The position numbers and the translations under genes were made by a program. 64,000 bases of DNA from a virus. Position 1 is the first letter of the stretch. Each line of letters starts with the position of its first letter. Under the pieces are notes generated by a model. It saw nothing but the letters and a program-made list of their open reading frames with translations, searched no databases and was not told the DNA's origin. Shown here piece after piece: positions 34,699 to 63,838 of this stretch. The stretch lies in the IMG/VR virus record IMGVR_UViG_3300037311_000355; one strand, 5' to 3'.

Positions 34699-34703
34699 TC
34701 GTA

Positions 34704-36819: not shown

Positions 36820-36848
36820 TTGACAGCTGAGGTTTTTTGCTGTATCTT
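36820..36848 (+). promoter_or_regulatory. sigma70-type promoter, leaderless geometry (TTGACA-17-TATCTT-6-ATG)
   Basis: Read directly. Confidence 0.6.
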
Positions 36849-36854
36849 TTAGGT

Positions 36855-37290: not shown

Positions 37291-37350
37291 TTTTGTTACC
37301 GTTTTTGCCCACAGAGAGTCCTGAAATCGTTTTGTTCGAGGGCGGCTCAA

Positions 37351-38448
37351 ATGCCTGATCAAAATCCCTACAAAGAGCTTTTAAAGCTGAAACGCTTTGT
37401 TGCGAAAAAAATAAAAACAACCAAATTTGGGTGCGAATACACGTTTTTACCGGCGACGTCGGCGGCAAAGGGTCTTTTGCGCGAACTAGAAAACTCTTAT
37501 ACTCTTTTACGAGAAGATAGCCAGGGTGTTAAAAAGCTGAAAAGCGTGTTTCCTCACGCCTACGAAGACGACGGATGTCTGGAGATACCAACTAAACCAG
37601 TCAGAGGTGTGCCGGCGGCGATAAAAAATTACAACAAAGCAGTTTCTTACGCGCGTAAAATCGGATTTTTACCATATATGGAGTCCGTGGATAAAAAAGG
37701 GAACCTTATTGAGCTCGGGCGCGGCGGCGGGCACGTGCACATAGAATCTCCGCTTTCCTGGCAACAAACACAAGAACTGGCGTTGTTAATAAATCTTTTT
37801 TTGTGCGCGCATCCGGCTTTGGTCTGGGGGTTTTCAGACTGGAGCGACGACCAAAACGCGATGCTATTGGCTTCGGACCCCCTAAACATGACGCGCGCGC
37901 TGTCTGGTTTTTTTGCAGACAAAATACAAAATAACAACGCCGGCCTTGAGGACTTAAGCATTGATACCAAAACCATGTGTGTGGTGCCTAGGCGACTTGA
38001 AATAAAAAAAGGTCAGCCAAAGTATACAATTGAATTCAGATTTTTTGACATGCCGTATCTAGGTTCCAAACAAGCCCGCGACCACTTAATTACGGCCGCA
38101 ACGATTTTTTGGACCATATATGCGGCACAACACAACGTGATCAAAAGCAAATACATGTCATTTTTTAAATATTTATCTAAGGAAGGAATAGCAGAGCGTG
38201 TCTTTGAACGACTGTCGCTTTGTTTTTATCCCCTCGACGCTCATCGTGCTTTTATCGAGCAACAAAAAAAGGCCAGGGAAATAAAAAAACAACTACTCAC
38301 ATTTCAAACCGATGAACAAGCCGGACGTAACATGGAAGCCGTGCAAAACGAAATGTTTTTAGGTTTCTTACCCGACCTAGGTATCCCGCTTTCCGAGCAT
38401 TTTTTTACAAACCTAGCCACCAGGATTAGGCACGGCAAGCTGGTCTAG
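37351..38448 (+). CDS. putative amidoligase (COOH-NH2 ligase / glutamine-synthetase-GCL fold)
   Basis: FGCEYT, DDGCLEIPT, GGGHVHI, TIEFRFFD motifs. Confidence 0.7.
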   Translation: MPDQNPYKELLKLKRFVAKKIKTTKFGCEYTFLPATSAAKGLLRELENSYTLLREDSQGVKKLKSVFPHAYEDDGCLEIPTKPVRGVPAAIKNYNKAVSYARKIGFLPYMESVDKKGNLIELGRGGGHVHIESPLSWQQTQELALLINLFLCAHPALVWGFSDWSDDQNAMLLASDPLNMTRALSGFFADKIQNNNAGLEDLSIDTKTMCVVPRRLEIKKGQPKYTIEFRFFDMPYLGSKQARDHLITAATIFWTIYAAQHNVIKSKYMSFFKYLSKEGIAERVFERLSLCFYPLDAHRAFIEQQKKAREIKKQLLTFQTDEQAGRNMEAVQNEMFLGFLPDLGIPLSEHFFTNLATRIRHGKLV

Positions 38449-38846
38449 ATATCTTCGCCGACAACAGGCGGGGGCTCGTCTTCGAATACGCGAGTTTTTC
38501 CTCTGGGTTTTTTAGCCGTTTTGCTAGCACCAGCCCTGGCTTTTTCCCGCGCCTCGCGTTCTTCGCGCTCGATGAACTCCTGAAGCAGCCTTTCCTCGTT
38601 TTCGTCGTAGTCTGGATCGGCGATTTTGGCAAGGTGCTCTTCTAGGTCTCCGTTTTCCTCCAGCTGCGAGGCGCGCTCTTCGAAATACGCGGAAACCACG
38701 AGTTCGGGGTCGAGATTAAATACCTGATGAAGGGGTGTGAAAAAAGTCTTGCTGTAAAACCTACATATTTGGCGGTAGTACGCTGACTCGTCGGGGTCGG
38801 CGACGTTTGCAAATGCGATTTCCGCGTATTTCTTGTACTCGATCAT
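38445..38846 (-). CDS. putative tail assembly chaperone, second gene
   Basis: YYRQICRFYSKTFFTPLHQV..L; coupled (ATGA) to 38843; inference from the pair architecture. Confidence 0.45.
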   Translation of the reverse strand: MIEYKKYAEIAFANVADPDESAYYRQICRFYSKTFFTPLHQVFNLDPELVVSAYFEERASQLEENGDLEEHLAKIADPDYDENEERLLQEFIEREEREAREKARAGASKTAKKPRGKTRVFEDEPPPVVGEDI

Positions 38847-39325
38847 TCCATTTCTCGGATTTCTTTGTTTATGGCGTCGTCGGCTTTTCTTTTTTCAACA
38901 ACGGCCTTTATTCGATTTACGGCCTCTTCGTGTTTTTTTGTTAGTCTTTCCCGGTACGCTAGCTCGGCCTCCATGCTGGCCTGTAAAACTAGATTGATGA
39001 CCTCGACGTCAAGAATGTGTCCGCCGCCGAATCTCGAACCCTGTTGGAACCAAAACGGCGGCGCCTCGATCACACGCTGTCGGAGCTGAGATAGGGCAAA
39101 AGCAAAGCTTTCCTCTTCTGTCGTGGCCTGAGAGGAATTCGGCCCAAGAAGCTCCCTATAGTCTCTGCCGGCCTCTATGACTTGAAGAGGGGTGAGCGCA
39201 CATCTGAACTTAAAAGTGCCCATATAAGACTGCCCTATGGCCGATACGTGATTGAGATCCCATTCGGCTTCGGAACCCGAGAACTTAAAACTTTCGTTGG
39301 TAATCATTGACACCTCAGAATCCAT
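38843..39325 (-). CDS. putative tail assembly chaperone
   Basis: Y.GTFKFRC.LT...GRDYR.LLG...A.AL..L...IEAPPFW pattern; acidic, helical. Confidence 0.5.
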   Translation of the reverse strand: MDSEVSMITNESFKFSGSEAEWDLNHVSAIGQSYMGTFKFRCALTPLQVIEAGRDYRELLGPNSSQATTEEESFAFALSQLRQRVIEAPPFWFQQGSRFGGGHILDVEVINLVLQASMEAELAYRERLTKKHEEAVNRIKAVVEKRKADDAINKEIREME

Positions 39326-39369
39326 ATATCACGGGTCGTGGTTAAGGAAAATAAAATCTACGCTGTGGG

Positions 39370-39377
39370 CAATCTTT
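39370..39377 (+). promoter_or_regulatory. putative late-promoter motif CAATCTTT (plus strand)
   Basis: 26 nt upstream of the plus-strand ATG at 39404, so the motif follows gene orientation. Confidence 0.55.
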
Positions 39378-39403
39378 TAAGTTGAGAACAAAGAGAGCCA
39401 AAC

Positions 39404-39769
39404 ATGGAAATCCAAGACCTACAAATAGTCATTCCCGCGGCTTCGGCCGCAACCGCCCTGGCCGGCGTCGCAGGCGCGTGGTTTAAGGCAAAAAAAGACA
39501 TAAAAGCTGAAATCGCCAAGGATATTCAGGCCTTAAAAGACCATTACAAAGCCGAGCACGAAAAAGTCGATCTGCGCCTCGACGCGGTGCGAAATGAAAT
39601 CCTCGGATTGGAAAAAAAAGTCGAGCGTGACATCGAACACGTAAGGATGACCTACAACAGTGAGGTAAGAAACCTGACCGAAAAGGTCGAAGGCCTACGC
39701 GAAGAGGTAAGACAGCATCACGGCCAGCTTTTGGGCTTGCTTGCCAAGCTCGTCAGTAGCGAAGACTAG
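39404..39769 (+). CDS. N-terminal TM + coiled-coil protein (holin/antiholin-like)
   Basis: One hydrophobic helix followed by a long coiled coil. Confidence 0.5.
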   Translation: MEIQDLQIVIPAASAATALAGVAGAWFKAKKDIKAEIAKDIQALKDHYKAEHEKVDLRLDAVRNEILGLEKKVERDIEHVRMTYNSEVRNLTEKVEGLREEVRQHHGQLLGLLAKLVSSED

Positions 39770-40035
39770 TCCCTAGGTACTCCAGGGTAGCCGTCAAAGG
39801 CGTTCTGCGAGGAGCCCGGGCATCTGACCTCGTCGAGCCCTATGAGGTCCTGGGGCCTAACGGTTACCGCTTTTTGTGCCTGTCCCGGCGGCCAATAGAT
39901 CGCGTTTCCGTCGGCGTCGGCGACGTAGATAACCACGGCGCCGGTTTTGTCTGCGTAACACGTGTTGCTGGCCACGGGAGGCGCGACGCAAGACACGAGG
40001 GTCATCAGTGCCGCGAGCACAAAAAGCGCTCTCAT
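39766..40035 (-). CDS. small lipoprotein
   Basis: MRALFVLAALMTLVS-C lipobox-like signal; GGAG SD. Confidence 0.65.
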   Translation of the reverse strand: MRALFVLAALMTLVSCVAPPVASNTCYADKTGAVVIYVADADGNAIYWPPGQAQKAVTVRPQDLIGLDEVRCPGSSQNAFDGYPGVPRD

Positions 40036-40036
40036 G

Positions 40037-40357
40037 TTAGGCTCCCCTTAGGGCTTTGGCAGCCTTTTTAGCCTGTCTTTCCTGAGACTTCTGCATTTCT
40101 TCCATGGTTTCTACTTTGGCGTCAAATCTTTTGACTCCCACGGGACGAAAGACGGTGTTTTTTTCTGAAAAGTTGTCAACGACAGAAACCACGCGGCCGT
40201 CGTCGGCGAAAAGATTGTGATTTACGCCAACGATTTCCTGGAGTTCCTGAGTTAGCTCGTCGATTTCGTCGTAAAACGGTTTAACGGCCTCCAGGGCGTC
40301 TTTTAGTTCTACGATTCGGTTTACGATTTGCCGCACGTCTTTGGTTTCGTCTTTCAT
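40037..40357 (-). CDS. hypothetical coiled-coil protein
   Basis: GGAG SD; clean ORF. Confidence 0.7.
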   Translation of the reverse strand: MKDETKDVRQIVNRIVELKDALEAVKPFYDEIDELTQELQEIVGVNHNLFADDGRVVSVVDNFSEKNTVFRPVGVKRFDAKVETMEEMQKSQERQAKKAAKALRGA

Positions 40358-40528
40358 TTTTGTTCTCCGTTGTTGTTAACAATTTAACAGTTTTTTCCAA
40401 ACTAGTCAACTGATTTCTGAACAGCTCGCCCACGGCCCCCGACATATTGATGTTGGGGCGCGTCAGCGCTATCATGGCCATGAGATGCGGGAGGTCTGAT
40501 TTTTGATACATTTGGGTCTCCGGTTGGG

Positions 40529-40903
40529 TTACCGTTGGCTTTCTCGTCTCGCCGACACCGGCGTTGAGTGAGCAAACGTGTTTAAACGCACGAGGATGGC
40601 TTCCATTGCGTTTTTGGGCATATCTGGGGTTTCTACCGGATTGTCTTCGTAGCCTAGCGCGTAGCCAATCCTGGCGAGGCTGACGGGGATTTGAGACGCT
40701 AGCTTATAACCGCCTCCCGACCTCCCTCGTCTGGAAAGTAAAATCCCGGCAGCGACGAGCTTGGCGCAAATCGACTGGATAAAGACCTTGGTGGTGTTGG
40801 ATTCCAGTGCGAGGTCCTGCGAGGAAACAAAAACGTCTCCTCGGAGAGCAATAGACTCTAAAACCGAAACCGCGATTCTCACATCTTTGTTAATTCTTAA
40901 CAT
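40529..40903 (-). CDS. Rrf2-family winged-helix regulator lacking the Fe-S cysteine triad
   Basis: VSSQDLA......FIQSI.AKL..AGIL.S.RGRSGGGYKLA; GAGG SD. Confidence 0.8.
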   Translation of the reverse strand: MLRINKDVRIAVSVLESIALRGDVFVSSQDLALESNTTKVFIQSICAKLVAAGILLSRRGRSGGGYKLASQIPVSLARIGYALGYEDNPVETPDMPKNAMEAILVRLNTFAHSTPVSARRESQR

Positions 40904-40904
40904 T

Positions 40905-41114
40905 TCAATCCTCCGTTTTTATCACCCCAACCGCTATTTCCAGGTAGTCGGTGGGAACCAGTTTTGTTTTATCGCCGAATACAACAGCAGCCATCGAGCA
41001 AGGCCGGCCCAGCCACACGCCTTCTTTGATTTCACGCACCTCATAGGTGCGACCCAAAACCGCGCCTCTGAACCTGTGCTTGAAAACCGCGACAGCTGTT
41101 ACTTTTTCCGCCAT
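40905..41114 (-). CDS. small hypothetical protein
   Basis: Start revised to the ATG at 41114. Confidence 0.5.
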   Translation of the reverse strand: MAEKVTAVAVFKHRFRGAVLGRTYEVREIKEGVWLGRPCSMAAVVFGDKTKLVPTDYLEIAVGVIKTED

Positions 41115-41124
41115 TTTTCCGCCA

Positions 41125-41343
41125 TTATTCCGTTGCGGAGAAAATAAACGTGCCCCAGTTACCAAAATGCGCGCGTCGGTGCCCGTTGGCGGTCATCGAA
41201 GACACCGCGGCCTCCAATTGCTCGAAGTCGATTTCCAGGGCCTCATAGGCGATTCGACAGCAATCCGAGAAGCTGCCGGCAAAAACCTGGCGTCCATTGG
41301 CCTTAAGAACGAATCCGGATTCGGTTTCCAAGAGGTCTGCCAT
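41125..41343 (-). CDS. small hypothetical protein
   Basis: AGGAG SD; promoter TTGACC-17-TATCCT at 41391-41363. Confidence 0.65.
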   Translation of the reverse strand: MADLLETESGFVLKANGRQVFAGSFSDCCRIAYEALEIDFEQLEAAVSSMTANGHRRAHFGNWGTFIFSATE

Positions 41344-41362
41344 AGTAGGTTCTCCTGAATCC

Positions 41363-41391
41363 AGGATAGCAAAACCCGGTCTTTGGGTCAA
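41363..41391 (-). promoter_or_regulatory. sigma70-type promoter with leader (TTGACC-17-TATCCT)
   Basis: Read directly; likely drives the small-gene/Rrf2 operon. Confidence 0.6.
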
Positions 41392-41521
41392 CAAAAAAAT
41401 AATTTAAAAAAGTTGTCACGAAAACGAAAAATTGTGATACAAAGTAATATAAATAGAGGCGTCGCGATGCTTATATTTAGAAAAGAAATTTCCCAATAAA
41501 ATCAAGGGTCTGTGAGCCAAA

Positions 41522-41794
41522 ATGGAAGCGTTGAAAATTTTCCTCGGAATCCTGTCCGGATTTAAGAAATCCATTGTCATAACCATTACCCTGGCTCTGG
41601 GCATGTTTTTGCTGGTCAAGGGCTTCATAAACGGCGAACAGTTCGTCGACCTCCTCAAGGACTCCCTAATCGCCTATATTTCGCTTTCCGGTGTGGAAAC
41701 CGTGTCTGCGACGGCGGCGAAATGGGTGGCAACCCGTGCCACGAAGGAAATCGACGGCATCGATGACTCTTTGCAGGGGGACACCGACAAATGA
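41522..41794 (+). CDS. holin-like membrane protein
   Basis: Two hydrophobic segments, charged C-terminus; first gene of a coupled cassette. Confidence 0.55.
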   Translation: MEALKIFLGILSGFKKSIVITITLALGMFLLVKGFINGEQFVDLLKDSLIAYISLSGVETVSATAAKWVATRATKEIDGIDDSLQGDTDK

Positions 41795-42078
41795 CAGCAG
41801 CGCTGCAATCGCTTTGGAAAAACGATAAAGTAAGGTTTTTACTGTGGTTTATTCCGCTGGTGTGTTTGGCACTTATGGCCGTGTTTATTCCAGGCATCAG
41901 GGAAATCCTGGCCAGGAGCGCGCAACGCATCGTAGACGCCGCGCAACGGAAATCGGATCGCCTGCAATCCGAGGCTGGAAGGGCCGACATGAACGCCAGG
42001 GAAGCGGTTTCCAAGGCCGACGGCTATCGCAGGCTCCACGACAACACGGAAGGCGATGAAAATTGGCACCTAAAATGA
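41791..42078 (+). CDS. spanin-like protein (N-terminal TM + coiled coil)
   Basis: TM FLLWFIPLVCLALMAVFIPGI followed by a helical region; ATGA overlaps. Confidence 0.45.
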   Translation: MTAALQSLWKNDKVRFLLWFIPLVCLALMAVFIPGIREILARSAQRIVDAAQRKSDRLQSEAGRADMNAREAVSKADGYRRLHDNTEGDENWHLK

Positions 42079-42458
42079 AGGCCCTAGCCGCCCTTGTATT
42101 GATGTTTTGCACCCCCCAGCTAGGGTGGGGTAGCTGTGAGTTTAAAACCGGCGTAAAAGCCAATCCTGACGGCTCCTACACGTATTCCCGGGAGTGCCAT
42201 ATAGAGGTAGGCCTGATACGCGAGCGTCTCCAGTATAAAACCGCGGAGGCCGACGAGCTTCGCCGGGCCGTAGAACTCAAAGACCTCGCGTATAAAAGCC
42301 AGGCCCAGGACACCGCCAATTGGATGCTGGCCGCGCAAAAAACCAACGACAGATTGCAGTCTTATCAAAATTTTAACATTCTTAACCAGGTGCTGTTTTT
42401 CGGCGCCGGCGTGGGCCTAACCGTGTTATCGGTGTGGGCAGCCGGTCAGCTGAGATAA
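42075..42458 (+). CDS. secreted/membrane protein with signal peptide, coiled coil and C-terminal TM (spanin-like)
   Basis: Start revised to 42075; hydrophobic segments at both ends. Confidence 0.5.
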   Translation: MKALAALVLMFCTPQLGWGSCEFKTGVKANPDGSYTYSRECHIEVGLIRERLQYKTAEADELRRAVELKDLAYKSQAQDTANWMLAAQKTNDRLQSYQNFNILNQVLFFGAGVGLTVLSVWAAGQLR

Positions 42459-42459
42459 C

Positions 42460-42488
42460 TTGACTCCACGGGTTAGGTATGGTAGATT
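42460..42488 (+). promoter_or_regulatory. sigma70-type promoter, leaderless geometry (TTGACT-17-TAGATT-6-ATG)
   Basis: Read directly. Confidence 0.6.
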
Positions 42489-42494
42489 TGATTT

Positions 42495-43061
42495 ATGGAC
42501 ATGCTAACCATCTTGATCGCCGCCGCCAAACAAGCCCAGGTCCCCGCAGCCCTGCTTATCGCGATTTGCAGCCACGAAACCAAGATCAACAACGTCGTGG
42601 TTAAAAACGACGGCAACGGCGACAGCATTGGTTATTGCATGGTCAAGCACACCACGGCACAGATGATGGGCTACAAAGGCAAGGCCTACGGAAAGCTTAG
42701 GAAAAGCAAGTTGTTTCCCGGCAGCGTCTACGAAGCCGTTGGCGCCCCCGAAGGTCTCATGGACCCCGAAACCAACGCCAGGTACGCGGCTTTGTATTTG
42801 AAGAAACAATACGACCGCTACGGCGGCGACTTTTGCATGGCCGCCGCCGCCTATAACGCCGGCAAGTTCATGCCTAGTCGCAAAAACGCCAGACAGCCCG
42901 CGAACCGCAAATACGTGGATAAAATCATCTCTGTAATAGGCGACACTCCGGAAATCCGCGATCTCTTCAATTGCAGGCACTCACGGAAGCCAGCGAAAGC
43001 CAAACACGCCGAGATCGAAATAGATTTCCTGATTCGATCTATGTCGTCTGCAAAGCAGTAA
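42495..43061 (+). CDS. SLT-family lytic transglycosylase (possible endolysin)
   Basis: AICSHET catalytic Glu, SIGYCMVK..TA, L.DPETNARYAA.YL, AAAAYNAG. Confidence 0.85.
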   Translation: MDMLTILIAAAKQAQVPAALLIAICSHETKINNVVVKNDGNGDSIGYCMVKHTTAQMMGYKGKAYGKLRKSKLFPGSVYEAVGAPEGLMDPETNARYAALYLKKQYDRYGGDFCMAAAAYNAGKFMPSRKNARQPANRKYVDKIISVIGDTPEIRDLFNCRHSRKPAKAKHAEIEIDFLIRSMSSAKQ

Positions 43062-43524
43062 TAGCAGACTCTATGTCGGCCGGAGTCAGCAAATCTAGGT
43101 CTTTTTCTATTTTCGCGCCTTTGATTACTAGTATTTCGCCAATGAGTTCCGAACAGTTAATACCTGATTTCCACGGGTTATGCCTAAGGCGAAAAATATG
43201 GGCTAGCACGATACCGAGGTTTTGCGCGAATCCATAAGACACGCCGGCCTGATCGATACACCATGTCATGGTTTTTTTATAAACGTGGTCGGAAACCAGA
43301 AACTCATAGGATCCCAGCTCCCGGCTTTGTTTTTGCCACATTTTTGATCCCACGAATCTAACGCCGCCAAAAATGGCCTCGTAAATCACAGACCTGCCTG
43401 TAAGTGAGGAATCAAAACCCAGATATACGTGTGAATACGGCTTTTTAATCCAAAGCCTGATCAGCCAACTAAATACGGGAAACATTTTTTTCGGACGCGA
43501 GAATCCAATTCTTATGGTTTTCAT
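43039..43524 (-). CDS. permuted papain-like (YiiX/YebB-type NlpC/P60) amidase/peptidase
   Basis: His before Cys: PYSHVYL ... GVSYG ... INCSELI. Confidence 0.75.
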   Translation of the reverse strand: MKTIRIGFSRPKKMFPVFSWLIRLWIKKPYSHVYLGFDSSLTGRSVIYEAIFGGVRFVGSKMWQKQSRELGSYEFLVSDHVYKKTMTWCIDQAGVSYGFAQNLGIVLAHIFRLRHNPWKSGINCSELIGEILVIKGAKIEKDLDLLTPADIESAITALQTT

Positions 43525-43997
43525 GTTAGATAGTCCAAGATGCGCTGCTTAAAGGCAAGCATTCTTGTCTCTGTAATAAATGGTTCGAGATCTACAGGAA
43601 GACCGGCTAAAATTAGCCTATCGATTTCATTTACGACCTCATATAAAGAACCCGACTGCGCGTATCGCATGAGATCCGCGAGGTAATCAGCCACGGCTTT
43701 GGTTTTTCCCGCCTGCGTGATACCCATAGCTACGTTTTCACCGGCGAACTCTATAATGAGGCCGTTGGCAAAATTGATTGCGCCGGATATGATTTGAATT
43801 GCCCACTCGTTGGGTGAAGACGGGTCGTGGCTTGCCACTATAGCAGCTATGGCGTCGAGGTCCTGTTGGCTCAAAGCCGAAGCTGTATGCACGACAAGAA
43901 CGCCGTTGCAAAAACTTAGACCGGAGATTTGAAACGCGGAAAGCTCGGATTGCAATTTTTCAATTTTAACCGATTCTTTTTGAAACTCGTAATCCAT
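43521..43997 (-). CDS. tail fibre assembly-like protein
   Basis: Follows the fibre gene; AIVASHDP motif typical of fibre chaperone N-termini. Confidence 0.5.
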   Translation of the reverse strand: MDYEFQKESVKIEKLQSELSAFQISGLSFCNGVLVVHTASALSQQDLDAIAAIVASHDPSSPNEWAIQIISGAINFANGLIIEFAGENVAMGITQAGKTKAVADYLADLMRYAQSGSLYEVVNEIDRLILAGLPVDLEPFITETRMLAFKQRILDYLT

Positions 43998-43998
43998 G

Positions 43999-45117
43999 TC
44001 AAGACTTCCTTATTAGCGTGAGATAGCGACCGGTTGCAGACGCCGTTCCCGACGGCGTACTCCATCTGATTTCAACGGTTTGTGATCCATTTGTTACGAT
44101 TTCGGAATCCGCGCCCCAAAACATAGAAACGTTGCCCTGTGTGCCTCCGCGTTTAACCGAACTTTGGGTACTGGCCACCAGACTTCCGCCCAAATACAGG
44201 CCAAAAGTAATGCTTCCGTTTGAGCTACCGTGGGTAGCGTTTACCTTTGCTGTAACCAAATAGGTGCCTGCGGCCGGAGTCACTGACATCGTGTTCATAG
44301 CAATAGGTGTACCACTATTGGTCTGCGTAGTTGTGGTTGATTTTAACGTCTGCGATACGACAGGCACGGCGTCTGCGCCGCCGGGCGCGTGGCGGCTAGA
44401 GTGGGCCTCTACTACAACACCGTTTACCGACGCCACATTTGTCGCCTGATTGCTGGCAAAGTTAAGATTTCCGGTTAGATTTCTCGCGCCGTCGGTTCTC
44501 AGGTATTGACCGTGGTCGTCTGCACCTAAATTTGTAAGATTGCTGTGACTTATGGTGCCCTGTGGGGTGCCGGCGATGAGATCGATGATATCAGCCTGGT
44601 CAAAAATTTTTACCAAAACCAGAACTCGCTCGCCGATTTGTACCGATCCGCCGCTAATACGTCTCATTCTGGCGTCTACGGCCTGGGAGCCGTTTACAGT
44701 AACCGTTGCAGCGCTCAGCGAACCCGCGGATGAATTGTTTGTAGAAAGCGTGATAAGACCGATGATATTCGTCGTGTTTCTTATTTCCCTAACTGAAGAC
44801 GAAACCACGGATCCGCCGACGTATATCGCCACTTCCGCCTCTGTGTTAACCCCAGATGTTCCAATGGATCCGTTAAAAAGAACCAAATAGCGCCCCGCGG
44901 GCGGCGTAAGAGACATCGATGGTACGGCCACAAATGACGTCGAAGTTGTGCTGGCCGGAGACACTGAGCCTACCTGATAGAAGATCGAAGACGCGCTAGC
45001 GCCGAAGTTTTTAGCCTCTACTATGGCTGCGTGCACGTTTTGCGCGGAAAAACCGTTTCCGGAGCCACTAAAAGGTATGGATTCTGCGGTGGCGTGTCTG
45101 TTGTCTCGCCTCATCAC
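43999..45117 (-). CDS. tail fibre/spike-like protein with two similar beta-sandwich domains
   Basis: Internal duplication SMSLTPPAGRYLVLFNG vs TMSVTPAAGTYLVTAKV; HSNLTNLGADDHGQYL and HSSRHAPGGAD fibre motifs. Confidence 0.65.
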   Translation of the reverse strand: MMRRDNRHATAESIPFSGSGNGFSAQNVHAAIVEAKNFGASASSIFYQVGSVSPASTTSTSFVAVPSMSLTPPAGRYLVLFNGSIGTSGVNTEAEVAIYVGGSVVSSSVREIRNTTNIIGLITLSTNNSSAGSLSAATVTVNGSQAVDARMRRISGGSVQIGERVLVLVKIFDQADIIDLIAGTPQGTISHSNLTNLGADDHGQYLRTDGARNLTGNLNFASNQATNVASVNGVVVEAHSSRHAPGGADAVPVVSQTLKSTTTTQTNSGTPIAMNTMSVTPAAGTYLVTAKVNATHGSSNGSITFGLYLGGSLVASTQSSVKRGGTQGNVSMFWGADSEIVTNGSQTVEIRWSTPSGTASATGRYLTLIRKS

Positions 45118-45422
45118 CCACGCTCCGCCACAACTATGTTAATTGTAGCGTCGGCGGCCAAAACAAATACTCGTTGGTCGTCGCCGGCCTCAACAGTGAT
45201 CAGCTCGTCTTTGAAACAGGTAAAGCCGTTGTTTTGAAGGTCTACAGTAGACGGAGTACCAGATTCGTTGCCAAAAAACATATAAAACCGACCACTGCCC
45301 TGCACGGTTATAGCCTTGCGCTCAGGTAAGGGAAAGGCTTCGATTTTAAGCTCAACCACAGTGTTCTGAGTAACAGATAGTTTTGCCTGACGCGAGGGGC
45401 CGTCTAGTGGCAGAAAAGACAT
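45114..45422 (-). CDS. small virion protein (similar to the C-terminal domain of 45645)
   Basis: PLPERKAITVQ vs PLANRKYLFIR. Confidence 0.6.
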   Translation of the reverse strand: MSFLPLDGPSRQAKLSVTQNTVVELKIEAFPLPERKAITVQGSGRFYMFFGNESGTPSTVDLQNNGFTCFKDELITVEAGDDQRVFVLAADATINIVVAERG

Positions 45423-45424
45423 AA

Positions 45425-45643
45425 TTAAGCCCCCGCATCGACGTTTGTGTTTTCGTGAACTTTTTTGATTTCCAGTATGTTTGCGTCGATCTTAGACAAA
45501 ATGACTTTTTGCATGTAGGACAGCAGCTTAAAGTATGCGATGAGTTCTTCGGTATTCATTTCAAAACGCGCGTGTTTTGCTACCGAGTTTAAAAACTCAA
45601 TTGTTTTAGTTTTGTCTTCTTCGCAAAAAGTCGTTTTTGTCAT
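45425..45643 (-). CDS. hypothetical protein, 72 aa
   Basis: Operon position. Confidence 0.6.
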   Translation of the reverse strand: MTKTTFCEEDKTKTIEFLNSVAKHARFEMNTEELIAYFKLLSYMQKVILSKIDANILEIKKVHENTNVDAGA

Positions 45644-45644
45644 C

Positions 45645-46451
45645 TTAACTTAACTCCAAAGTCCGAATTTGTAGGTTCGCTTTGTTTGAAACAAAATGAA
45701 CCACAGAGGCAGCTCCGGCGCGAAGCTCGACAAAACTTCCTGGAGACACAGGAAATCCCGTAGCGGTTGTAACTCCGCTTTGTCCGATAAACGCAATCTG
45801 GTTGTCGTTGTTTCTAATAAACAGGTACTTACGATTAGCAAGCGGGCTTGCCACCACGGCTTGCGAGGTGTTGGCGACATCCAGGGTTTCGGCAGCAGCT
45901 GCGATTGCGGTGTTTGCAAGCGCGGCGTCGCTGACAGTGAGCGTGCCGTCTTGGCCGGCGATATGGACGTTTAGACCGCCGGAAACCGCGTCTTTGCTAA
46001 GCAGCTCCGCGTCTCCGCTGACGTCATCGATGGCGTACACGAATGCGTTGGAGTCCACGGCATTGACGTCACCCAGGTTTGCTGCCGCCAAAGTAGCCAG
46101 GCCACCGGCCGTGGTACGTTCGACTTGTTCGGTGATACCAGGAGCCGCGCTACGGCTGTGGTAAATCGCGCCAGCGCTGTCTGGGGTAGGGTTTGTGCCT
46201 ACATCGTAGACGCCGTCGATGTCTACGTTAACAACTAGAGGGCTTACTAGATCCACAGGCACCGGGTTGGCGCTGGTGTAGGGGTTGCCGTCTTCGTCGT
46301 GCAGGGACGCCGCTACGTTTAACCACTGCTCGCCGCCGATTGCCTGGCTTTGAATTAGATTTCCGGCCGCGTCTCGCACATATGCGCCTACGCTGTCGCT
46401 GGCGGCAATGGAATCCACGTCTGTGGTGTCAAAAATTAGTCTGTCTTTCAT
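45645..46451 (-). CDS. virion decoration-like protein
   Basis: GAGG SD; late motif at 46472-46479; NPVPV motif shared with 46508. Confidence 0.65.
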   Translation of the reverse strand: MKDRLIFDTTDVDSIAASDSVGAYVRDAAGNLIQSQAIGGEQWLNVAASLHDEDGNPYTSANPVPVDLVSPLVVNVDIDGVYDVGTNPTPDSAGAIYHSRSAAPGITEQVERTTAGGLATLAAANLGDVNAVDSNAFVYAIDDVSGDAELLSKDAVSGGLNVHIAGQDGTLTVSDAALANTAIAAAAETLDVANTSQAVVASPLANRKYLFIRNNDNQIAFIGQSGVTTATGFPVSPGSFVELRAGAASVVHFVSNKANLQIRTLELS

Positions 46452-53449: not shown

Positions 53450-54192
53450 TCAAACCTCGCCATAACAGCCGGAAGCACCTCGGACTCCCAGGTTTGTTCC
53501 GCCCACTGCAGTGCCCTGCCAAGAAAGTCTTTGGGTTGCAAACCGGGGTGGTGCCACTTGTCCATGCGTTTTTCGCTGATAACCCTAAACGTAAGAATGT
53601 CGCGTCTCACGCCACCCGAGGGGGTTTTGGTTTGATATATGGTGACCCCGCTAAGCGCGGGGTGACTAGCTTTTTGACTGGGCTCCGGACTGCTGAAATT
53701 AAATCTGTGCAGCGCACCCAGCCTTGGGCTGCCATCGGCGTTGTATTCGATCTTTTTGAAAGGCACGCCGGCTTTTTTAAGCTCAGATCTTATCTTGGCT
53801 TTCATGCCCTGGGCAAAACCAGACATTTGGGAATCCGGTTTGCTGTGCTCGAAGGGAATCGCGCGATAGCGGTGACCGTCTTTGGACACCTTGGCCCCGT
53901 TTTTAAGCAGGTCTTCGTGCATGGGCCCGGCTTTGCGACCGTCTTCGATAAATAGCGCGGGTTCGTCGACGCTCACCACCCAAATGCCTGAGCTGATTTC
54001 TTCAAAACCCAGGTTATCTAGGAATTTCTTGCGCGTCGACGACAGCTCTTTGTTAGCGGTCTCCACGACATGGGCGTGAGTCATGGCTGCCAACGACTTC
54101 ACGGCCTCATCTAATGCGGCCTTGACCTCGTTTTTAAACTCGCCCATTTCTGAGACAAAAGCTTCGGTATTGAAGAAAAACCTTAATGACAT
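53446..54192 (-). CDS. neck/tail-completion protein (HK97 gp10-like fold)
   Basis: A.FIEDG...GPM...LL, TFRVIS....KW.HPG....FL.RA. Confidence 0.6.
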   Translation of the reverse strand: MSLRFFFNTEAFVSEMGEFKNEVKAALDEAVKSLAAMTHAHVVETANKELSSTRKKFLDNLGFEEISSGIWVVSVDEPALFIEDGRKAGPMHEDLLKNGAKVSKDGHRYRAIPFEHSKPDSQMSGFAQGMKAKIRSELKKAGVPFKKIEYNADGSPRLGALHRFNFSSPEPSQKASHPALSGVTIYQTKTPSGGVRRDILTFRVISEKRMDKWHHPGLQPKDFLGRALQWAEQTWESEVLPAVMARFE

Positions 54193-54395
54193 CAGTACCT
54201 TTCGTGCGTGAGATCGCCGCCGGAATCCAAGGCCACGCCTTTTTTTCTATCGATCCACTTACGTCTTCCGGTTTGGTTGTCGACGACGATTTGCAAACCC
54301 TCGTACGTTATCGCACCCTCGGGAAGGGGTTTTTTGGCCACATGCGCTGTGCTTTGTCGAGTCGGAAGACGGGCCTTTTCAACCGACTCTAGGCT
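54192..54395 (-). CDS. 67-aa C-terminal extension reached by -1 frameshift from 54389..55624
   Basis: Open -1 frame SLESVEKARLPTRQSTAHVAKK...HERY with no start codon of its own; its TGA overlaps the next ATG. Confidence 0.7.
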   Translation of the reverse strand, partial: SLESVEKARLPTRQSTAHVAKKPLPEGAITYEGLQIVVDNQTGRRKWIDRKKGVALDSGGDLTHERY

Positions 54396-54401: not shown

Positions 54402-55624
54402 AGCGATTGGCCCCCGGAATCGGATTGCCCGCCTTCTTGGGCGCCAAGCTCTTTGGCCATGGCGACCATGGTTTGCAACATGGCAATCACGCTTTTATAC
54501 GCATCTGGAGCCGCGGTTTTCATTTCGTCAATAACTGACTTGTTTTGTTTGAACTGCTCCAGGATTTGCGCGATTTTTTGTCGCAACTCGTCTGGGGTAG
54601 CAGAGCTTTCCAGCATTTCCTGCAAGGCGTAAAACTCCTCGCTTGGCCCGCCGTCTTCCGGCGCGCCCTGGTTTTCCGCGTCGCCGCCGACGGCGCCGGG
54701 ATCCGAGATGTCAGGAGACTCCTGGGCTTCAGGGGCTTGCATTTCGGGTTCCGGTGATTTTTCCGCGGTTTCCGTGTTTTGCTCTTCTTCGTTGGCGTCA
54801 ACGAATTTATCAGATTCCGGGATTTCAATTGCGCCGTCTTCGTTGGAACCACTGTGGTCGCCGCCGACATCCTCATCTTCGCTGTCTTCGGACTGCTCGT
54901 CTTCGCCTAAGATCTCATCTACGTGAGACTGCGTGCTGTGTTCGGCGCTTTTTTCTGATTCGCTTTCGTCAAAGCTGTCTTCTGTAGTCGGCGATTCAAA
55001 ACCCGGAGACCACTCGTTTTCGTCGTCGGCGTCGATTTCCGGCGGCATCTCGGTATGAGTTGGCCCCTCGTCGCGGTAGTCCTGCATTGAGTCGCCGTCA
55101 AATTCGCCGATGCCATCGGATTCCGAACGCCAGTGGTCGTCGCCCTCGATCTCATCGTCGGAATCCCCCATGACGTGATCGAGGTAGTGCTCGTTAATCT
55201 TATTTTCTTCCTCGGTACCGTCTTGGTGATTATGTGCGGCGTGAAGCGCGTCTTCGACTTCGTGGCTGTATGCCATGGACTGGTTTTTACCCGAAAGCTT
55301 GCCCGCCAACAAAGATTTGCCAGCCTGGCTAAGAGTTAGCCCGTGACCGACAGTAACCGTAATGCCGCCTGAGGCGTCTGTGAATTTCTGCCTTAGGTCT
55401 TCGATTTCTTCGCGATGCCTGGGATCCAGCATTGCCGTCATTTCATCGCCGCCACTGCTGATAACCGTGCCGCCGCGCTGGGTAACCCAGGAAATCGCGG
55501 CCTGAAGCCCGAGCCCGATGTGTTTGGAAACCGAATGCAGTGCCTCTACGTCGTCCATGAGAACCGCTTGCCCCACCTTGCCTCCGGCGTTATCAGCGTC
55601 TAGTGCGATAAAAAGTTTATTCAT
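54389..55624 (-). CDS. mCpol-like (minimal CRISPR polymerase / nucleotide cyclase palm) domain + long acidic linker + helical domain
   Basis: N-terminal FIALDADNAG...VISSGGDE...TVTVGHG...A.KSLL.GK..GKN; Asp/Glu-rich middle region. Confidence 0.7.
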   Translation of the reverse strand: MNKLFIALDADNAGGKVGQAVLMDDVEALHSVSKHIGLGLQAAISWVTQRGGTVISSGGDEMTAMLDPRHREEIEDLRQKFTDASGGITVTVGHGLTLSQAGKSLLAGKLSGKNQSMAYSHEVEDALHAAHNHQDGTEEENKINEHYLDHVMGDSDDEIEGDDHWRSESDGIGEFDGDSMQDYRDEGPTHTEMPPEIDADDENEWSPGFESPTTEDSFDESESEKSAEHSTQSHVDEILGEDEQSEDSEDEDVGGDHSGSNEDGAIEIPESDKFVDANEEEQNTETAEKSPEPEMQAPEAQESPDISDPGAVGGDAENQGAPEDGGPSEEFYALQEMLESSATPDELRQKIAQILEQFKQNKSVIDEMKTAAPDAYKSVIAMLQTMVAMAKELGAQEGGQSDSGGQSLPKA

Positions 55625-58719: not shown

Positions 58720-59430
58720 CTAAGATTGTCGCGGCGTTACGTCGTGTTCTTCTCCGACGTCTACGGCGTCGTATAGGGCGACTACGTGCGGGAGCGTGGG
58801 GTGGCCGCTGTTATAAAACCCCTTGTATCCCGCGGACTTAAGTCTTTCGTGGACGTCGTCGATGTTTAGCGCGCCATGGGAGGCTTGCATTGAGACCCTG
58901 ACATGAGACTCGGGATCCGTGCCCAGATCATAGAGTTTATGCGTGGCGGGAAGCCGTACCTTGTATTTCGACCGCGAGCCCTGCGCGACCAGCGACTCCG
59001 GTGTCGTGCCCTCGCGGTAGAAAAACGTGTGCGGATGCCAGGTGTCGCGTCTCGCCGAGCGATCAACGCCGGTGCCCTTGAATCTGGGGTCGATTTGTTT
59101 CAGGCCTTGTTTGGGTGAGTAGTGTTCCAGCCTGATCTCTTCAGACTTTTCAAAGTCGAAATTATGCGAGAAATGCTCGCCGCTGGGAAGCGTGGAAAAC
59201 ATATCTTTGGGCGCTTGGCTGTAAAATTGCGTTCCCGAGCCGCGGACGATGGTCCCGGCTTTGGGTCCGTGATTGAAAACCATTTTGTGCGCGACGCCGT
59301 CGCTTTCGATGTGCGATTCCTGACCCGTGGTATGAGCAAGACGTCTAATGGCTGCCAATTGCTGCTTTGAGGGTCGGGAAACCAATATCGAGCGTTCCGG
59401 AGATCCGTAGTGTCCGCTAATCGAATGCAC
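58720..59430 (-). CDS. probable C-terminal continuation of the polyvalent protein; contains an ART-like domain
   Basis: Only a GTG start, 3 nt after the G9 run; HSISGHYGSPERSILV completes the domain begun upstream; LEHYSP...GTG...TFFY...LKSAGYKG is ART-like. Confidence 0.7.
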   Translation of the reverse strand: MHSISGHYGSPERSILVSRPSKQQLAAIRRLAHTTGQESHIESDGVAHKMVFNHGPKAGTIVRGSGTQFYSQAPKDMFSTLPSGEHFSHNFDFEKSEEIRLEHYSPKQGLKQIDPRFKGTGVDRSARRDTWHPHTFFYREGTTPESLVAQGSRSKYKVRLPATHKLYDLGTDPESHVRVSMQASHGALNIDDVHERLKSAGYKGFYNSGHPTLPHVVALYDAVDVGEEHDVTPRQS

Positions 59431-62400
59431 GTCCCCCCCCCTTAATAGCGCGTAGCGCAGCTATAGCGTCGTCGTGGGAGATTTGTTTTTTTATTTTGTC
59501 CGCATATGGCGAGTTTTCCACACTAAAAATGGCATGTGGGGCGCCCACGATGGGGTGCGAGACGCTTTTGTTTTCTGACTTTTTAATAGGCCTACGAGAT
59601 CGTAAAAAGTTTTGAGCAACGCGCTCCGCTTCTTCAGGGCTGGTAACCACCCCGGCACCGGCGTAGTTGTCAGAGGTATGTTCAATGCCGTTGTGAGTCA
59701 TTACCTGCTCATGAGTTAGATCATGGGCGTCCCACATATGAAGATGCCCGTTGGGGTCTCCAAAATAACGCATTGCTTCGGCCTTGGCTCCTTGAAACAG
59801 TTTTTTTGCCTGACCCGGGGAGGGGTTTTTATGAACCCTGTGGTTAAGTCCGGTTTCTACCGGAACCCTATATACGCTCTTATTAAGAGTTTCAACTTTT
59901 TTTACAGGCTTACCAAAGCCGCGGTTTTTTTGTCTCCACAGCGCTGCGCCCTCCTTGGACTGTGCTTCGAGATCGGGCACCATACGCAACCCGGTGCGCG
60001 ACTCCAGGCTTGCGTACATCGCCGACGCCAGGCCTTTTCTTTGGTGTTCAGGGTGTACGTCAACAATATTGGCTTGCATGGTGCCGTCACCGAGGTCTTC
60101 GGCGACGACGTGACCTACGACTCGCCCACTGCTATCCAGGGCTTGCATAGCGTGGGCGCCTGGCGTCGATTTGTCGTGCAAGATTTTATAGCCCTCGGAT
60201 TTCCAATCGCCCCTGGCGCCTTTTTTTATTTCAGATCCCTGTCTTGGAGCATAGGTGCCGTGTCTGACGAAATGATTAGCGTCGGCGTATCCGATTTCCG
60301 GCCTAGTTGGATGGGCGCTAGTCCCCTGAACTGGCGATCCATCGACGTGAGCGATTTCAAAATCCCGGGTCCAAAAACCAGCGCGATTGTTTTTGTCGTT
60401 TTGCGCGTCTGCGATTAAAGATCTAAGTTTTTGATGCGCGGGGTGTCTGCGGTTTAATAACACACTGGAGTGCCCTCTAACCGAGGGTTGTCCGGCCACG
60501 CCGACGGCAATCCAGCCCTCTTTTAATTTTGCATTCATGTGGGCGCCAAGTTCGCCCTCCGTCATGTAAATTCGGTCTTCGGGTCCTATTTTTAACGTCC
60601 GTCGCGCCAAAACGGTCGAGTGCGTTTCCCCAGGGTCCATGTGGCGGTATTTGCCTTCCGGCGAAATCCAGCCATGAATGGGATTAAGTCCGGTTTTATG
60701 TCGGAGGTTTTCCCACTGCTCTTTTTTAAGCGGATTTGTTTTTTTTGGCGCCTGTTTTTCCTTTTTATCCGGATAGTATTTGTCTATAAGCGCCCACATA
60801 CGCGCGGTTTCCCGGCGTTTTTTTTCAGCCCCTGCGTCTTTGGGGGCGCCGCCGTCTGCGCTTGCGGATTTCTTAACAGCCGGTCTTGTCACGTTTGGTT
60901 TTGATTGTTTTTTGCCCGACATCGCGGCTTCGGCGGCACGCACAGCTGCGTCTATGGCCCTGCCGTGCTCGGACCTAGCCTTTTGGTCTTCTTTTGCCGT
61001 CCTGGGTCGCTGCATGCGCAGCTCAGCTAGTTTTTTATCCGTCCAGGACTTGTAAAGCAATGCCAGGCTTTCGCTGGCCGCCAGTCTTTGATCCCCGGAT
61101 TCAGGCCTTAGCTCCAAGGCCGCGGCTGCCACGCGTTTCCAGCCGCGCTTCATGTCTTGAATCAGCGCACGGCTTTTGTTGGGATCCGAGTAACTGGGAT
61201 CCAGTTTTCCCGCGTGATATATAAATCGCTGTCTTTTTTCCGGATTTGACAGCACGTCTCGGGTTGTGTTTAAAACCTCTTGAACGTAGCCGGACTTCTC
61301 GGGTTTGTAACCCACCGTTGTCAAATAGTTGTGCATCGCGCTTTGATGTTCGGCGCTGAAGTGTTTGCCAATCAAATCCCGGAGCACGGCGTCGGCGTTG
61401 CCGTGACCGATTTTGTGGCCCAGGGCGTCCATGGCTTGGTGCCCGGCCTCGTGGGCCTGCGTGTATTCCAGGCGTTTCTGCGCCGACAGCCTGCCCTCGC
61501 TTTGGCCCGGATTTCTCACTTTGTTGTATTTGCCGCCGTAGGCGAAGGCCACGTCTTTGTCTTCGGATTCGCCCTGGATCTGTGCTCCACCTAATTTAGA
61601 GGGTGCGAAATTTCTTAGCACGCGCTTGACGTTTTGCTCGACACCGGCGTCGGTTAAAAACCTAGCCCTGGGGTGGTAGTTGATGACGCGCCTGGCCTGG
61701 ATCTCCCTTTGCCTAGGTGTGGTAACTATTGCCACCGAAGACGTTTTGTCGTCGATGCCGTAGCCGGGAAACCTAAGCCTGGGTTGAGATTTTTTTACAC
61801 CAAGCTTTTCCGTCCTAGTACCAGGCCTGCGCTGCCGACTGAGTATTTTCGCGTCTCTGGGGTCAAAAACCACGTAGTTGTGATGGTCGTCGTGTTGGTA
61901 TTTGATTCCTTTTATGCCTAGTTGGTGTAAATGCGCGCTGATTTCTTTATCCGACATATTTAGATAATGCCGGTGGCCGCCGTAAAACTCGCCGCCCTTG
62001 AGCTGCTCGCCGGTTAAAAACTGTCCGGGGCTTTTTGCCGCCCTGTCGTTGGCGTCGCGATACCCCTGCGTGCCGCGGATCGCGTCTCGGACCTTTTTAG
62101 GCTGCTTGGCTACCGGAAGATCCCAGTGCAGCATCTCGTGATCCGAGGGCCTGTCGACGCGATAGAGTCCGCCCTTGCCGGGATCTGACCTTAGATTGGC
62201 GTAGAAGCCGGCTTCGTTTTTGCTCGAACTCAAGTAAATTCCATGTCCTCTGCTGGTCCCGTGTTGGGAGCCCGCCTTGTCGGTGTCAAAAGATTCGAAG
62301 TCGTTTGGGCTGCCGTGGTAGGCCAACGGGGATTTGCGAAGCTCGCTTGCCGCCAAAGGCTTTGGTTTTTGTTGCTTAGCAGATTTGTAATTGGGGTGTT

Positions 62401-63838
62401 CTGCTACCGCCCATCTCACATCTGCGTCGGCGTCGGTGTGTAGCGCGTGTAAGATGTCAGAAGGAGCCAATTCATTAGACAGCGCAGCGGTATGGCCGCG
62501 GTAGCCGTGACTGATCTTATTATGAAATATTTTTTTCACGTTTTCAGCAGAGGTATTTTTTGTCGTGTGCGGCGACACCAGATATTCGTTTTCGTTGCCA
62601 AATTTTTGACTAGTCGCGTTTTTGTGACCGAGATCGTAGCTGTACCAGATGTTGTCCAAGGGCACCATTCGGTGTTTCATCGTATCGCCGAAACCCGTGT
62701 TTTCTACGTCGCCGTAGCTGTGCAGCTGGTGTTCGGGACCGGTTTTAAAGACACCCTTGTACCCCCTGGTAAGCGCGACATGAGGCCTGCCGTCGATGGT
62801 ATGTACTCGATGACTGGCATGAGCTAAGATGTTTTCTCTCAGCCTGTTTTTGTGCCAGCGCAATTGCCGGGCTATTTTTTTACCGTGGGCGGCGGCGAAT
62901 TCGTGAAGGTCTTCAATAGTTATGTGTGAATTTTTTTCCGCCGCACCGCCGCTCTGGTGCAGGTCCATAAAGTTTTTGTCGGCTCGGGCCGCGGATTTCG
63001 CGTTGGCGTAGTTTTTGCGGTTTTCCATGACATTGACGATGTATTTAAGCGCCAGACTCGCCGGGTGATGAGGACTGTGCTTGTAGTGTCTGAAAAGCGT
63101 GCTTGCGCTGGGTTCGCGGTTTTTGTAAAACTGAAACTCTTTTTCTATTTTTGTCTTCTTGCGCTCGGCTTTTTCAAGCCCGTCGCCGTCGTCGTTTTCT
63201 TGGTGTTCGCGGTCGTGTTTGGCCTGATCCCAGGGATCGTCGAATTCCACGGGTTTCGGCGACGCCGGAGCGGGCTCTGGCTTCCGGTTTTCATTGCCCT
63301 GTTTTTCACCGTCTTCGCTCGCCGCCAGTTTTTTACCGGAAAATGGCAGCGTCTCCACGGTTACCGCGCCTTCGCAATACACGGGATCGCTGAACCGGAT
63401 GTCGGTGAACCCGGATTTCACATGCTGGTCGTAAATGGATTTGGGAACCGTGACACGGGCTTGAAAACTAGGGTACGTGTATCCGGTGCCGCGGTGGCGT
63501 TTGTAGACGTTTTTATAGGCCTCTGGCATGCCGTGGAGCTTGATGTGATAGTAGGCGTTGCCGTCGGGACCCTGAAACACACCGGGCTCCTGCGTCAGTT
63601 TGTGCTCGCCGGGGTTGGGAAGGCCTCGGAAGTCGTCAAGATGGCGTCTCGCGTTGTCTTCGGGTTTGAATTGTTTCACTGTTACGTGATACGGCAAGCC
63701 GTTGGGCTGATGGCTTTCCCCGTTTACGGCGACAGGCACTATGATGCTGTGACGCTCGCTGGCGCGGCGCTTATAGGCGGCGTCGGTTTTTTTAAGCGCG
63801 CCCGCGGCTCCACGCAGGGCATCCCAGAGTTTTCCCAT
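59417..63838 (-). CDS. polyvalent multi-enzyme protein (2H phosphoesterase-like, R-S-E ART-like, HEAT/LRV repeat, ART-PolyVal-like, HExxH peptidase, GNAT, unknown domains)
   Basis: YHVTV; LTRG/LHSY/ENEYLV; AYHGS...GHGIYLS...EAGFYA; HEAGH; VDVHPEHQRKGLASAMY. Confidence 0.8.
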   Translation of the reverse strand: MGKLWDALRGAAGALKKTDAAYKRRASERHSIIVPVAVNGESHQPNGLPYHVTVKQFKPEDNARRHLDDFRGLPNPGEHKLTQEPGVFQGPDGNAYYHIKLHGMPEAYKNVYKRHRGTGYTYPSFQARVTVPKSIYDQHVKSGFTDIRFSDPVYCEGAVTVETLPFSGKKLAASEDGEKQGNENRKPEPAPASPKPVEFDDPWDQAKHDREHQENDDGDGLEKAERKKTKIEKEFQFYKNREPSASTLFRHYKHSPHHPASLALKYIVNVMENRKNYANAKSAARADKNFMDLHQSGGAAEKNSHITIEDLHEFAAAHGKKIARQLRWHKNRLRENILAHASHRVHTIDGRPHVALTRGYKGVFKTGPEHQLHSYGDVENTGFGDTMKHRMVPLDNIWYSYDLGHKNATSQKFGNENEYLVSPHTTKNTSAENVKKIFHNKISHGYRGHTAALSNELAPSDILHALHTDADADVRWAVAEHPNYKSAKQQKPKPLAASELRKSPLAYHGSPNDFESFDTDKAGSQHGTSRGHGIYLSSSKNEAGFYANLRSDPGKGGLYRVDRPSDHEMLHWDLPVAKQPKKVRDAIRGTQGYRDANDRAAKSPGQFLTGEQLKGGEFYGGHRHYLNMSDKEISAHLHQLGIKGIKYQHDDHHNYVVFDPRDAKILSRQRRPGTRTEKLGVKKSQPRLRFPGYGIDDKTSSVAIVTTPRQREIQARRVINYHPRARFLTDAGVEQNVKRVLRNFAPSKLGGAQIQGESEDKDVAFAYGGKYNKVRNPGQSEGRLSAQKRLEYTQAHEAGHQAMDALGHKIGHGNADAVLRDLIGKHFSAEHQSAMHNYLTTVGYKPEKSGYVQEVLNTTRDVLSNPEKRQRFIYHAGKLDPSYSDPNKSRALIQDMKRGWKRVAAAALELRPESGDQRLAASESLALLYKSWTDKKLAELRMQRPRTAKEDQKARSEHGRAIDAAVRAAEAAMSGKKQSKPNVTRPAVKKSASADGGAPKDAGAEKKRRETARMWALIDKYYPDKKEKQAPKKTNPLKKEQWENLRHKTGLNPIHGWISPEGKYRHMDPGETHSTVLARRTLKIGPEDRIYMTEGELGAHMNAKLKEGWIAVGVAGQPSVRGHSSVLLNRRHPAHQKLRSLIADAQNDKNNRAGFWTRDFEIAHVDGSPVQGTSAHPTRPEIGYADANHFVRHGTYAPRQGSEIKKGARGDWKSEGYKILHDKSTPGAHAMQALDSSGRVVGHVVAEDLGDGTMQANIVDVHPEHQRKGLASAMYASLESRTGLRMVPDLEAQSKEGAALWRQKNRGFGKPVKKVETLNKSVYRVPVETGLNHRVHKNPSPGQAKKLFQGAKAEAMRYFGDPNGHLHMWDAHDLTHEQVMTHNGIEHTSDNYAGAGVVTSPEEAERVAQNFLRSRRPIKKSENKSVSHPIVGAPHAIFSVENSPYADKIKKQISHDDAIAALRAIKGGGRAFD
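59433..59441 (-). repeat. G9 homopolymer separating two halves of one reading frame
   Basis: Nine C on the + strand; G8 would fuse 63838..58720 into 1705 aa. Confidence 0.9.

Follow-up and report, generated by a model that had tools for sequence, protein, structure and literature searches.

In the 64,000-nucleotide (nt) stretch of viral DNA analysed here in full and called the window, namely IMG/VR record IMGVR_UViG_3300037311_000355, a gene on the minus strand encodes a protein of 411 amino acids (aa), P0001, which sequence comparison and structure modelling together show to be a two-part protein, that is a minimal mCpol palm domain joined to a recoded carrier and encoded in the neck module of a phage. 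The phage in question is uncultured and is related to Myxococcus phage Mx1; of the public sequencing runs, the only one listed as containing it is a freshwater metagenome, its probable source, and no RNA run was listed. Judging from its residues and its predicted fold, the mCpol copy is apparently a working one with an intact active site. The explanation preferred here, which is put forward tentatively, is that of a structural carrier with an active cyclase as its head, specified by a neck-module gene, docked in the particle and probably serving to interfere with host immunity.

Studies of mCpol have hitherto been confined to its role as the synthase of Panoptes, a bacterial guard system in which, as the original prediction recounted in agreement with the published work (PMC12657218; PMC12657230), the enzyme OptS makes a cyclic di-AMP decoy whose depletion by phage anti-CBASS proteins triggers defence. 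That prediction had also assigned an mCpol-like minimal palm to positions 55275-55624 of the window, i.e. residues 1-116 of P0001, and the assignment is borne out by a profile match as well as by superposition on OptS. Residues 5-117 match the Pfam family mCpol (PF18182) at 42.2 bits for a gathering cut-off of 26.4 (E=1.2e-10), along profile positions 1-112 of 114, which at the level of sequence is far beyond chance. The Pfam comparison suggested at the outset thus returned mCpol above its cut-off, the Cas10 palm (PF22335) below its own (17.7-20.4 bits vs. 27), and no GGDEF domain (PF00990) among the matches listed for P0001 at E<=1. In PHROGs, no family was found for P0001 or its N-terminal domain, and PADLOC gave no match for the phage-type mCpol domain.

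Regarding the fold, the AlphaFold model of P0001, built on 84 homologues, reaches a predicted local distance difference test (pLDDT) score of 96-98 over residues 1-130 and of about 90 up to residue 150. When compared with the PDB by Foldseek, its top matches are the Panoptes OptS/mCpol crystals 9pd0, 9mnr and 9nwn, with a target-normalised template modelling (TM) score of 0.86-0.89, a root-mean-square deviation of 1.5-1.9 A over 116-118 columns and 26-27% identity, so that the structural match to palm cyclases anticipated by the original prediction was found. The GGDEF domains and Cas10 rank lower (TM about 0.5-0.56, target-normalised), and a phmmer search of the PDB with P0001 recovers mCpol/OptS chains only. 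The palm is followed by two extra helices ending in a conserved EExxKxxEHYL motif, and the whole of residues 1-155 is shown by these alignments and models to be a predicted minimal palm cyclase of the mCpol family, in which none of the residues whose importance is known from Panoptes OptS is missing.

The metal-binding pair of the LDADN motif and the GGDE motif, both of which had been pointed out from the start, are indeed present at residues 8-12 and 58-61. The phmmer alignment to PDB sequences sets D9 and D60 opposite Asp6 and Asp57, the residues named as belonging to the OptS active site (PMC12657218). Of the two base-selecting residues of OptS, S30 and N34 (PMC12657230), the former is aligned to S33 of P0001 and the latter corresponds to G37, a variable position in the family (D, N, E, T, R, Q), so that the substrate or the product may differ among members. 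Over 209 family sequences, D9 is retained in 201, D11 in 206, G59 in 205, D60 in 206, K109 in 208 and G93 in all, and such strong purifying selection on the catalytic residues, as read from the alignment, argues for an enzyme. In addition, prediction of a P0001 homodimer with two ATP gave a score of 0.77 for a best control of 0.00, with a contact agreement of at least 58% and a partner pLDDT of at least 84 in the dimer runs; among solved structures, 20 of 30 one-chain pairs and one of 23 single chains attain the mark applied to this score. The predicted symmetric interface comprises residues 20-37, 55-60 and 97-103 and brings the two GGDE hairpins opposite each other. Since a like mCpol dimer had already been solved, the success of the dimer prediction may only reflect this likeness and is not an independent proof.

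Behind the cyclase domain, residues 156-328 form a linker modelled with pLDDT below 50, where 62 aspartate and glutamate residues face 5 lysine and arginine residues for an isoelectric point (pI) of 4.05. The original prediction of an acidic linker was right as to charge, and its length, given then as about 200 aa, is corrected here to 173 aa. Linkers are always acidic across the family, with medians of 190 aa, 30% D+E and a net charge of -52. The helical domain next to it (residues 329-398, pLDDT 73-94), on which the original prediction was silent, was found in 149 of the 166 family proteins examined. Pfam has nothing to offer for this domain or for the C-terminal extension described below, and fold searches with the carrier models (VIA-wide search and Atlas shape search) yielded only generic helical matches (Z <=6.5, TM <=0.31).

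The open reading frame (ORF) of P0001 ends with CTC CCA AAA GCC TAG and thereby exposes the heptamer C-CCA-AAA in frame. In the -1 frame, 67 codons are open beyond it and exactly fill what would otherwise be an intergenic gap of 197 nt. Downstream of the heptamer in the window lies a stem-loop whose folding energy, taken by itself, is ordinary (z=-0.87), and most of the 20 distinct relatives that were folded have a stem-loop of differing sequence past this site. A profile of the extension has a single match in the window (E=1e-26) and also matches the C-terminus of the Mx1 orthologue; as far as these alignments tell, this basic segment is conserved as protein. Among 45 distinct relatives, it is encoded in the -1 frame in 27, where it sits behind CCCAAAR or AAAAAAG, in the +1 (or -2) frame in five (L016, L021, L036, L037 and L053), and in frame in 13. 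In the model of one in-frame relative, the helical domain (pLDDT about 90) and the extension (94-97) are not packed against each other. The five +1 cases have in common a CCCCACAG motif shortly ahead of the stop, which suggests, at the sequence level, a different recoding event on tRNA-Pro in this subclade. Altogether, the features expected of programmed -1 frameshifting were found, namely an in-frame X-XXY-YYZ heptamer, a downstream structure, a conserved -1 ORF and an in-frame fusion in relatives, and two protein lengths of 411 and 477 aa are predicted. The terminal Pro-Lys, which is invariant in the family proteins, can then be understood as the footprint of the slippery site.

The gene is embedded in the conserved order g181-g307-g160-g272-mCpol-g248-g331-...-g101-sheath-tube, which was retrieved in 43 of the 43 relatives checked, i.e. 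42 IMG/VR viral loci and one contig of a metagenome-assembled genome (MAG) at NCBI, with identity to the sheath of the window (phrog_279) going down to 27%. These viral records extend up to about 150-170 kb and five of them are 96-100% complete. The location among neck and head genes initially proposed is supported as regards the neck (head-to-tail joining) genes, the gene lying just upstream of the tail sheath. The capsid, portal and protease genes are annotated elsewhere in Mx1, from which it follows that the block around mCpol is a neck block. As stop and start codons overlap along this block, the mCpol-carrier gene would be co-expressed with the neck genes. Mx1-like myoviruses, in other words, carry it as a core neck-module gene of fixed position, the translation of which is coupled to that of structural genes.

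As for the extent of the family, a word-indexed search retrieved 28 proteins with the layout of P0001, and an exhaustive HMMER search with residues 1-135 as the query retrieved 674 cluster representatives at E<=0.001, including at least 473 at E<=1e-10, the clusters having been made at 50% identity. Nearly all members have 350-800 aa with the mCpol domain at the N-terminus, and the viral entries of the family in UniProt lack names. Among cellular genomes, a relative was met in one of 185,579 species genomes only, on a 14-kb MAG contig, and this single match indicates that the mCpol-carrier belongs to lytic phages. The contig itself (L075; DBCB01000363.1) lies in a Planctomycetaceae MAG bin, so that either phage DNA was wrongly binned there or the contig gives a clue to the host. 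A tblastn search with P0001 against 50,697 cultured phage records produced no match, nor did megablast with the 12 kb around the gene. Myxococcus phage Mx1 (169.6 kb), which is the only cultured phage with this neck module, surfaces only when the queries are the neighbouring genes or P0123, a relative of the Mx1 type. Phage-encoded mCpol is not described in the literature searched, including both Nature papers on Panoptes, the paper on type II and a review of phage countermeasures dated November 2026.

The exceptions within the family are instructive with respect to the carrier. At the same position in Mx1, the orthologue WNM70340.1 is a fold-level match (21 bits, under the PF18182 cut-off) in which S-x-D replaces D-x-D and LGAV replaces GGDE, the helical domain and the in-frame extension being kept. 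Likewise, a syntenic 477-aa protein of locus L071 (4768-6201) is devoid of the mCpol domain and keeps both the helical domain and the in-frame extension, with six Cys-x-x-Cys pairs in the place of mCpol. Cys-x-x-Cys pairs like these are also seen within the linkers of P0019 and P0025. Some further relatives put GNAT domains onto the same carrier. From the Mx1, L071 and GNAT variants, the carrier emerges as the indispensable part and the enzyme head as a module, one that over 95% of the members nevertheless retain with its site intact.

Besides its dead mCpol in the neck module, Mx1 has a palm cyclase with an intact motif in its head module, i.e. WNM70324.1 (L047:17173-17904), a 243-aa GGDEF protein (PF00990, E=1.3e-9) whose gene sits between those of the prohead protease and the capsid. 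Among the five complete relatives, a GGDEF match was obtained in one (G005), within an 808-aa open frame.

The evidence fits an enzyme and a structural or assembly carrier at once, the carrier outliving the loss of the active site in Mx1 or of the whole domain in L071. Under the preferred explanation of a particle-docked cyclase, the carrier would dock the protein into the particle or an intermediate of its assembly, in the head interior or in the portal-neck region, and the proportion of chains that are anchored would be fixed by frameshifting. The protein is probably loaded into the particle, and the tethered cyclase dimer may be delivered with the DNA or freed at assembly, to make a cyclic di- or oligonucleotide from the nucleoside triphosphates (NTPs) of the host cell. 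The most likely purpose would be interference with nucleotide-based immunity, for instance by replacing the decoy signal monitored by Panoptes or by jamming receptors. Several points weigh against this explanation. Virion association is something that we infer; the fold searches of the carrier are nonspecific; no Cap15/OptE receptor domain (PF18153) was found in the five complete relatives, a search that was blank in the control genomes too; the dead site of Mx1 and the domain-less protein of L071 mean that the conserved job can be done without catalysis; and frameshifting into two isoforms is also a hallmark of assembly chaperones absent from the final particle.

An assembly chaperone of the G/GT kind is indeed the main rival. 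According to this somewhat unlikely alternative, the protein would be a factor for the neck or head-tail joining that is not kept in the particle, the short and long isoforms would scaffold the joining step in a fixed ratio, and the mCpol dimer would serve as a nucleotide-regulated or purely dimerising head. The conserved programmed frameshift with its two isoforms, the fixed place among neck genes and the persistence of the carrier with a dead site or no mCpol domain at all would be accounted for, as would the acidic disordered region, which is typical of chaperone- and scaffold-like proteins. A mere dimerisation module, however, does not need catalytic residues that are near-invariant over the 209 sequences; besides, the gene lies upstream of the sheath and not between the tube and tape-measure genes like those of tail chaperones, and no similarity to known chaperone families was found in Pfam or PHROGs.

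Rather improbable is a soluble late enzyme acting in the producing cell only, e.g. by making nucleotides late in infection that keep guard effectors silent, or in timing lysis, with the acidic tail as a regulator or DNA mimic and a position among structural genes that reflects late timing only. The intact active site and the predicted dimer are in line with it, a cyclase does require cytoplasmic NTPs, and phage GGDEF proteins exist elsewhere, including the second palm cyclase of the Mx1 head module; yet an accessory soluble enzyme would not be expected to be strictly syntenic, translationally coupled to neck genes and joined to a conserved, recoded carrier, and accessory anti-defence genes are usually variable in place and presence. 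Finally, a purely structural virion protein with a vestigial, non-catalytic palm fold, as might be imagined from Mx1 keeping the gene after losing the catalytic residues and from L071 having lost the domain, is most improbable given that D60, D11 and K109 are kept as counted above, that the base-contacting S33 is conserved and that in the predicted dimer the GGDE hairpins confront each other just as they do in the active enzyme.

Returning to the particle-docked cyclase, a more specific and frankly unlikely version of it can be formulated, in which an active mCpol dimer, packaged and delivered with the DNA, would supply or mimic the cyclic nucleotide by which the guard is told that all is well. 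The signal so supplied would keep the membrane effector of the guard silent while phage nucleases or sponges strip the host of its immune nucleotides. If true, this would be a viral antidote to a guard system, with the corollary that the largest and most diverse mCpol clade is viral and not cellular. More generally, the sequences and models gathered here raise the prospect that phages may themselves make immune-type nucleotides. In the literature, one alignment comprised 163 mCpol proteins, and a further study termed mCpol systems relatively rare; against these 163 proteins, the phage clade amounts to at least 473 clusters with mCpol as a core gene. Should the enzyme be active, it would represent a move in the arms race that goes beyond degrading or sponging signals, i.e. 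supplying or counterfeiting them, and would make it possible to test directly whether a guard system can be blinded.

Table. Location of the mCpol-carrier gene, its predicted elements and the adjoining genes in the window
Feature	Position	Strand	Remarks
Zero-frame ORF of the mCpol-carrier protein P0001	54389..55624	-	411 aa; ATG overlaps the stop of the upstream gene, 8 nt
Structured N-terminal domain, residues 1-155	55160..55624	-	mCpol minimal palm plus two extra helices
LDADN, residues 8-12	55589..55603	-	D9 aligned to OptS catalytic Asp6, D11 to Asp8
GGDE, residues 58-61, on a beta-hairpin	55442..55453	-	D60 aligned to OptS catalytic Asp57
Acidic, intrinsically disordered linker, residues 156-328	54641..55159	-	36% D+E, pI 4.05
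C-terminal helical domain, residues 329-398	54431..54640	-	Conserved; FKxNK...AP.LY motif
Slippery heptamer C-CCA-AAA	54395..54401	-	In frame, one codon ahead of the stop
Stem-loop, 7-bp stem GAGTCGG/CCGACTC	54359..54389	-	Begins 5 nt past the heptamer
Predicted -1 frame extension P0167, 67 codons	54195..54395	-	Basic, pI 9.5; would give the 477-aa long isoform
TGA of the -1 extension	54192-54194	-	Overlaps the ATG of the next gene (TGATG)
Upstream syntenic gene g272, 272 aa	55617..56435	-	C-terminal C4 zinc ribbon
Downstream syntenic gene g248, 248 aa	53446..54192	-	phrog_16819

Concerning the neighbouring genes, Atlas leads point g248 to HK97 gp10-like, tail-completion or neck proteins and, weakly, g307 to head-tail adaptor or neck proteins; g331 has a weak match to the SP10 terminator. 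Profile searches of g307, g272 and g248 against PDB sequences gave nothing meaningful, and for g272 Atlas provided nothing usable, no family or fold match being found. The zinc ribbon of g272 is invariant (CPDC...C.C), and no fusion of g272 with mCpol was found. The identification of g307 as a capsid protein was considered and rejected, given the annotation of the capsid, portal and protease elsewhere in Mx1. The conserved neck genes flanking mCpol have no Pfam match to a transmembrane effector or a cyclic-nucleotide receptor. Upstream, at the head of the block, is a 1473-aa polyvalent protein with ART-PolyVal (E=1.2e-8) and GNAT domains (59417-63838, minus strand), for whose N-terminus an Acb1-like 2H fold obtained no sequence support in the PDB or Pfam. 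As regards base composition, G+C is 0.47-0.52 at 22001-28000 and 32001-46000 of the window vs. 0.55-0.61 in the tail-gene region (1-22000).

Compared with known systems, the phage domain is closest to Panoptes OptS/mCpol, of which type I makes 2',3'-c-di-AMP and type II cA3 (PMC12657218; PMC12657230; PMC13577387). The two share the minimal palm fold, the catalytic aspartate positions, the base-contacting serine and a symmetric homodimer, predicted in the case of the phage protein. They differ in that OptS is found in a bacterial defence island, Panoptes systems being encoded by bacteria or archaea and frequently next to CBASS, whereas the phage mCpol is a core gene of a structural module, with neither a 2TM-beta-barrel nor a CARF-TM effector adjoining it. 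The phage mCpol also displays the canonical GGDE where OptS has AADG, and beyond the palm its polypeptide goes on with two helices, the acidic tether of 173 aa, the helical domain and the extension reached by frameshifting. Being viral and without an effector or receptor gene alongside, it is not a Panoptes system. The Cas10 palm and the GGDEF diguanylate cyclases belong to the same palm superfamily and have the GGD(E/D) hairpin in common with the phage domain, which is much smaller and lacks regulatory domains.

With respect to the carrier, a first parallel is provided by the polyvalent proteins, reportedly described by Iyer, Burroughs, Anand, de Souza and Aravind in 2017, and by other effector proteins packaged by phages, such as T4 Alt and the internal proteins, which likewise put an enzyme head on a carrier within a structural module. 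This likeness extends to the ART-PolyVal protein with which the phage mCpol shares its block and to the GNAT domains added in relatives, whereas the protein described here has but one enzyme domain, which is small, as well as a polyanionic tether of great length, recoding at the C-terminal end and putative packaging. A second parallel is with the frameshift pairs G/GT of lambda and 10A/10B of T7, which also combine an X-XXY-YYZ heptamer just ahead of the stop, a stem-loop downstream and a conserved extension for which in-frame fusions occur among relatives; the phage mCpol, however, is not located between the tube and tape-measure genes, is not a capsid or tube protein and bears an enzyme. Lastly, encapsulin cargo consists of an enzyme, a disordered linker and a short conserved C-terminal docking element, an arrangement which has no sequence relation to the phage protein and stands as an analogy only. 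Considered in its own right, the combination of an enzyme, a tether and an anchor with an isoform ratio set by frameshifting would make up a natural cargo-loading device worth understanding.
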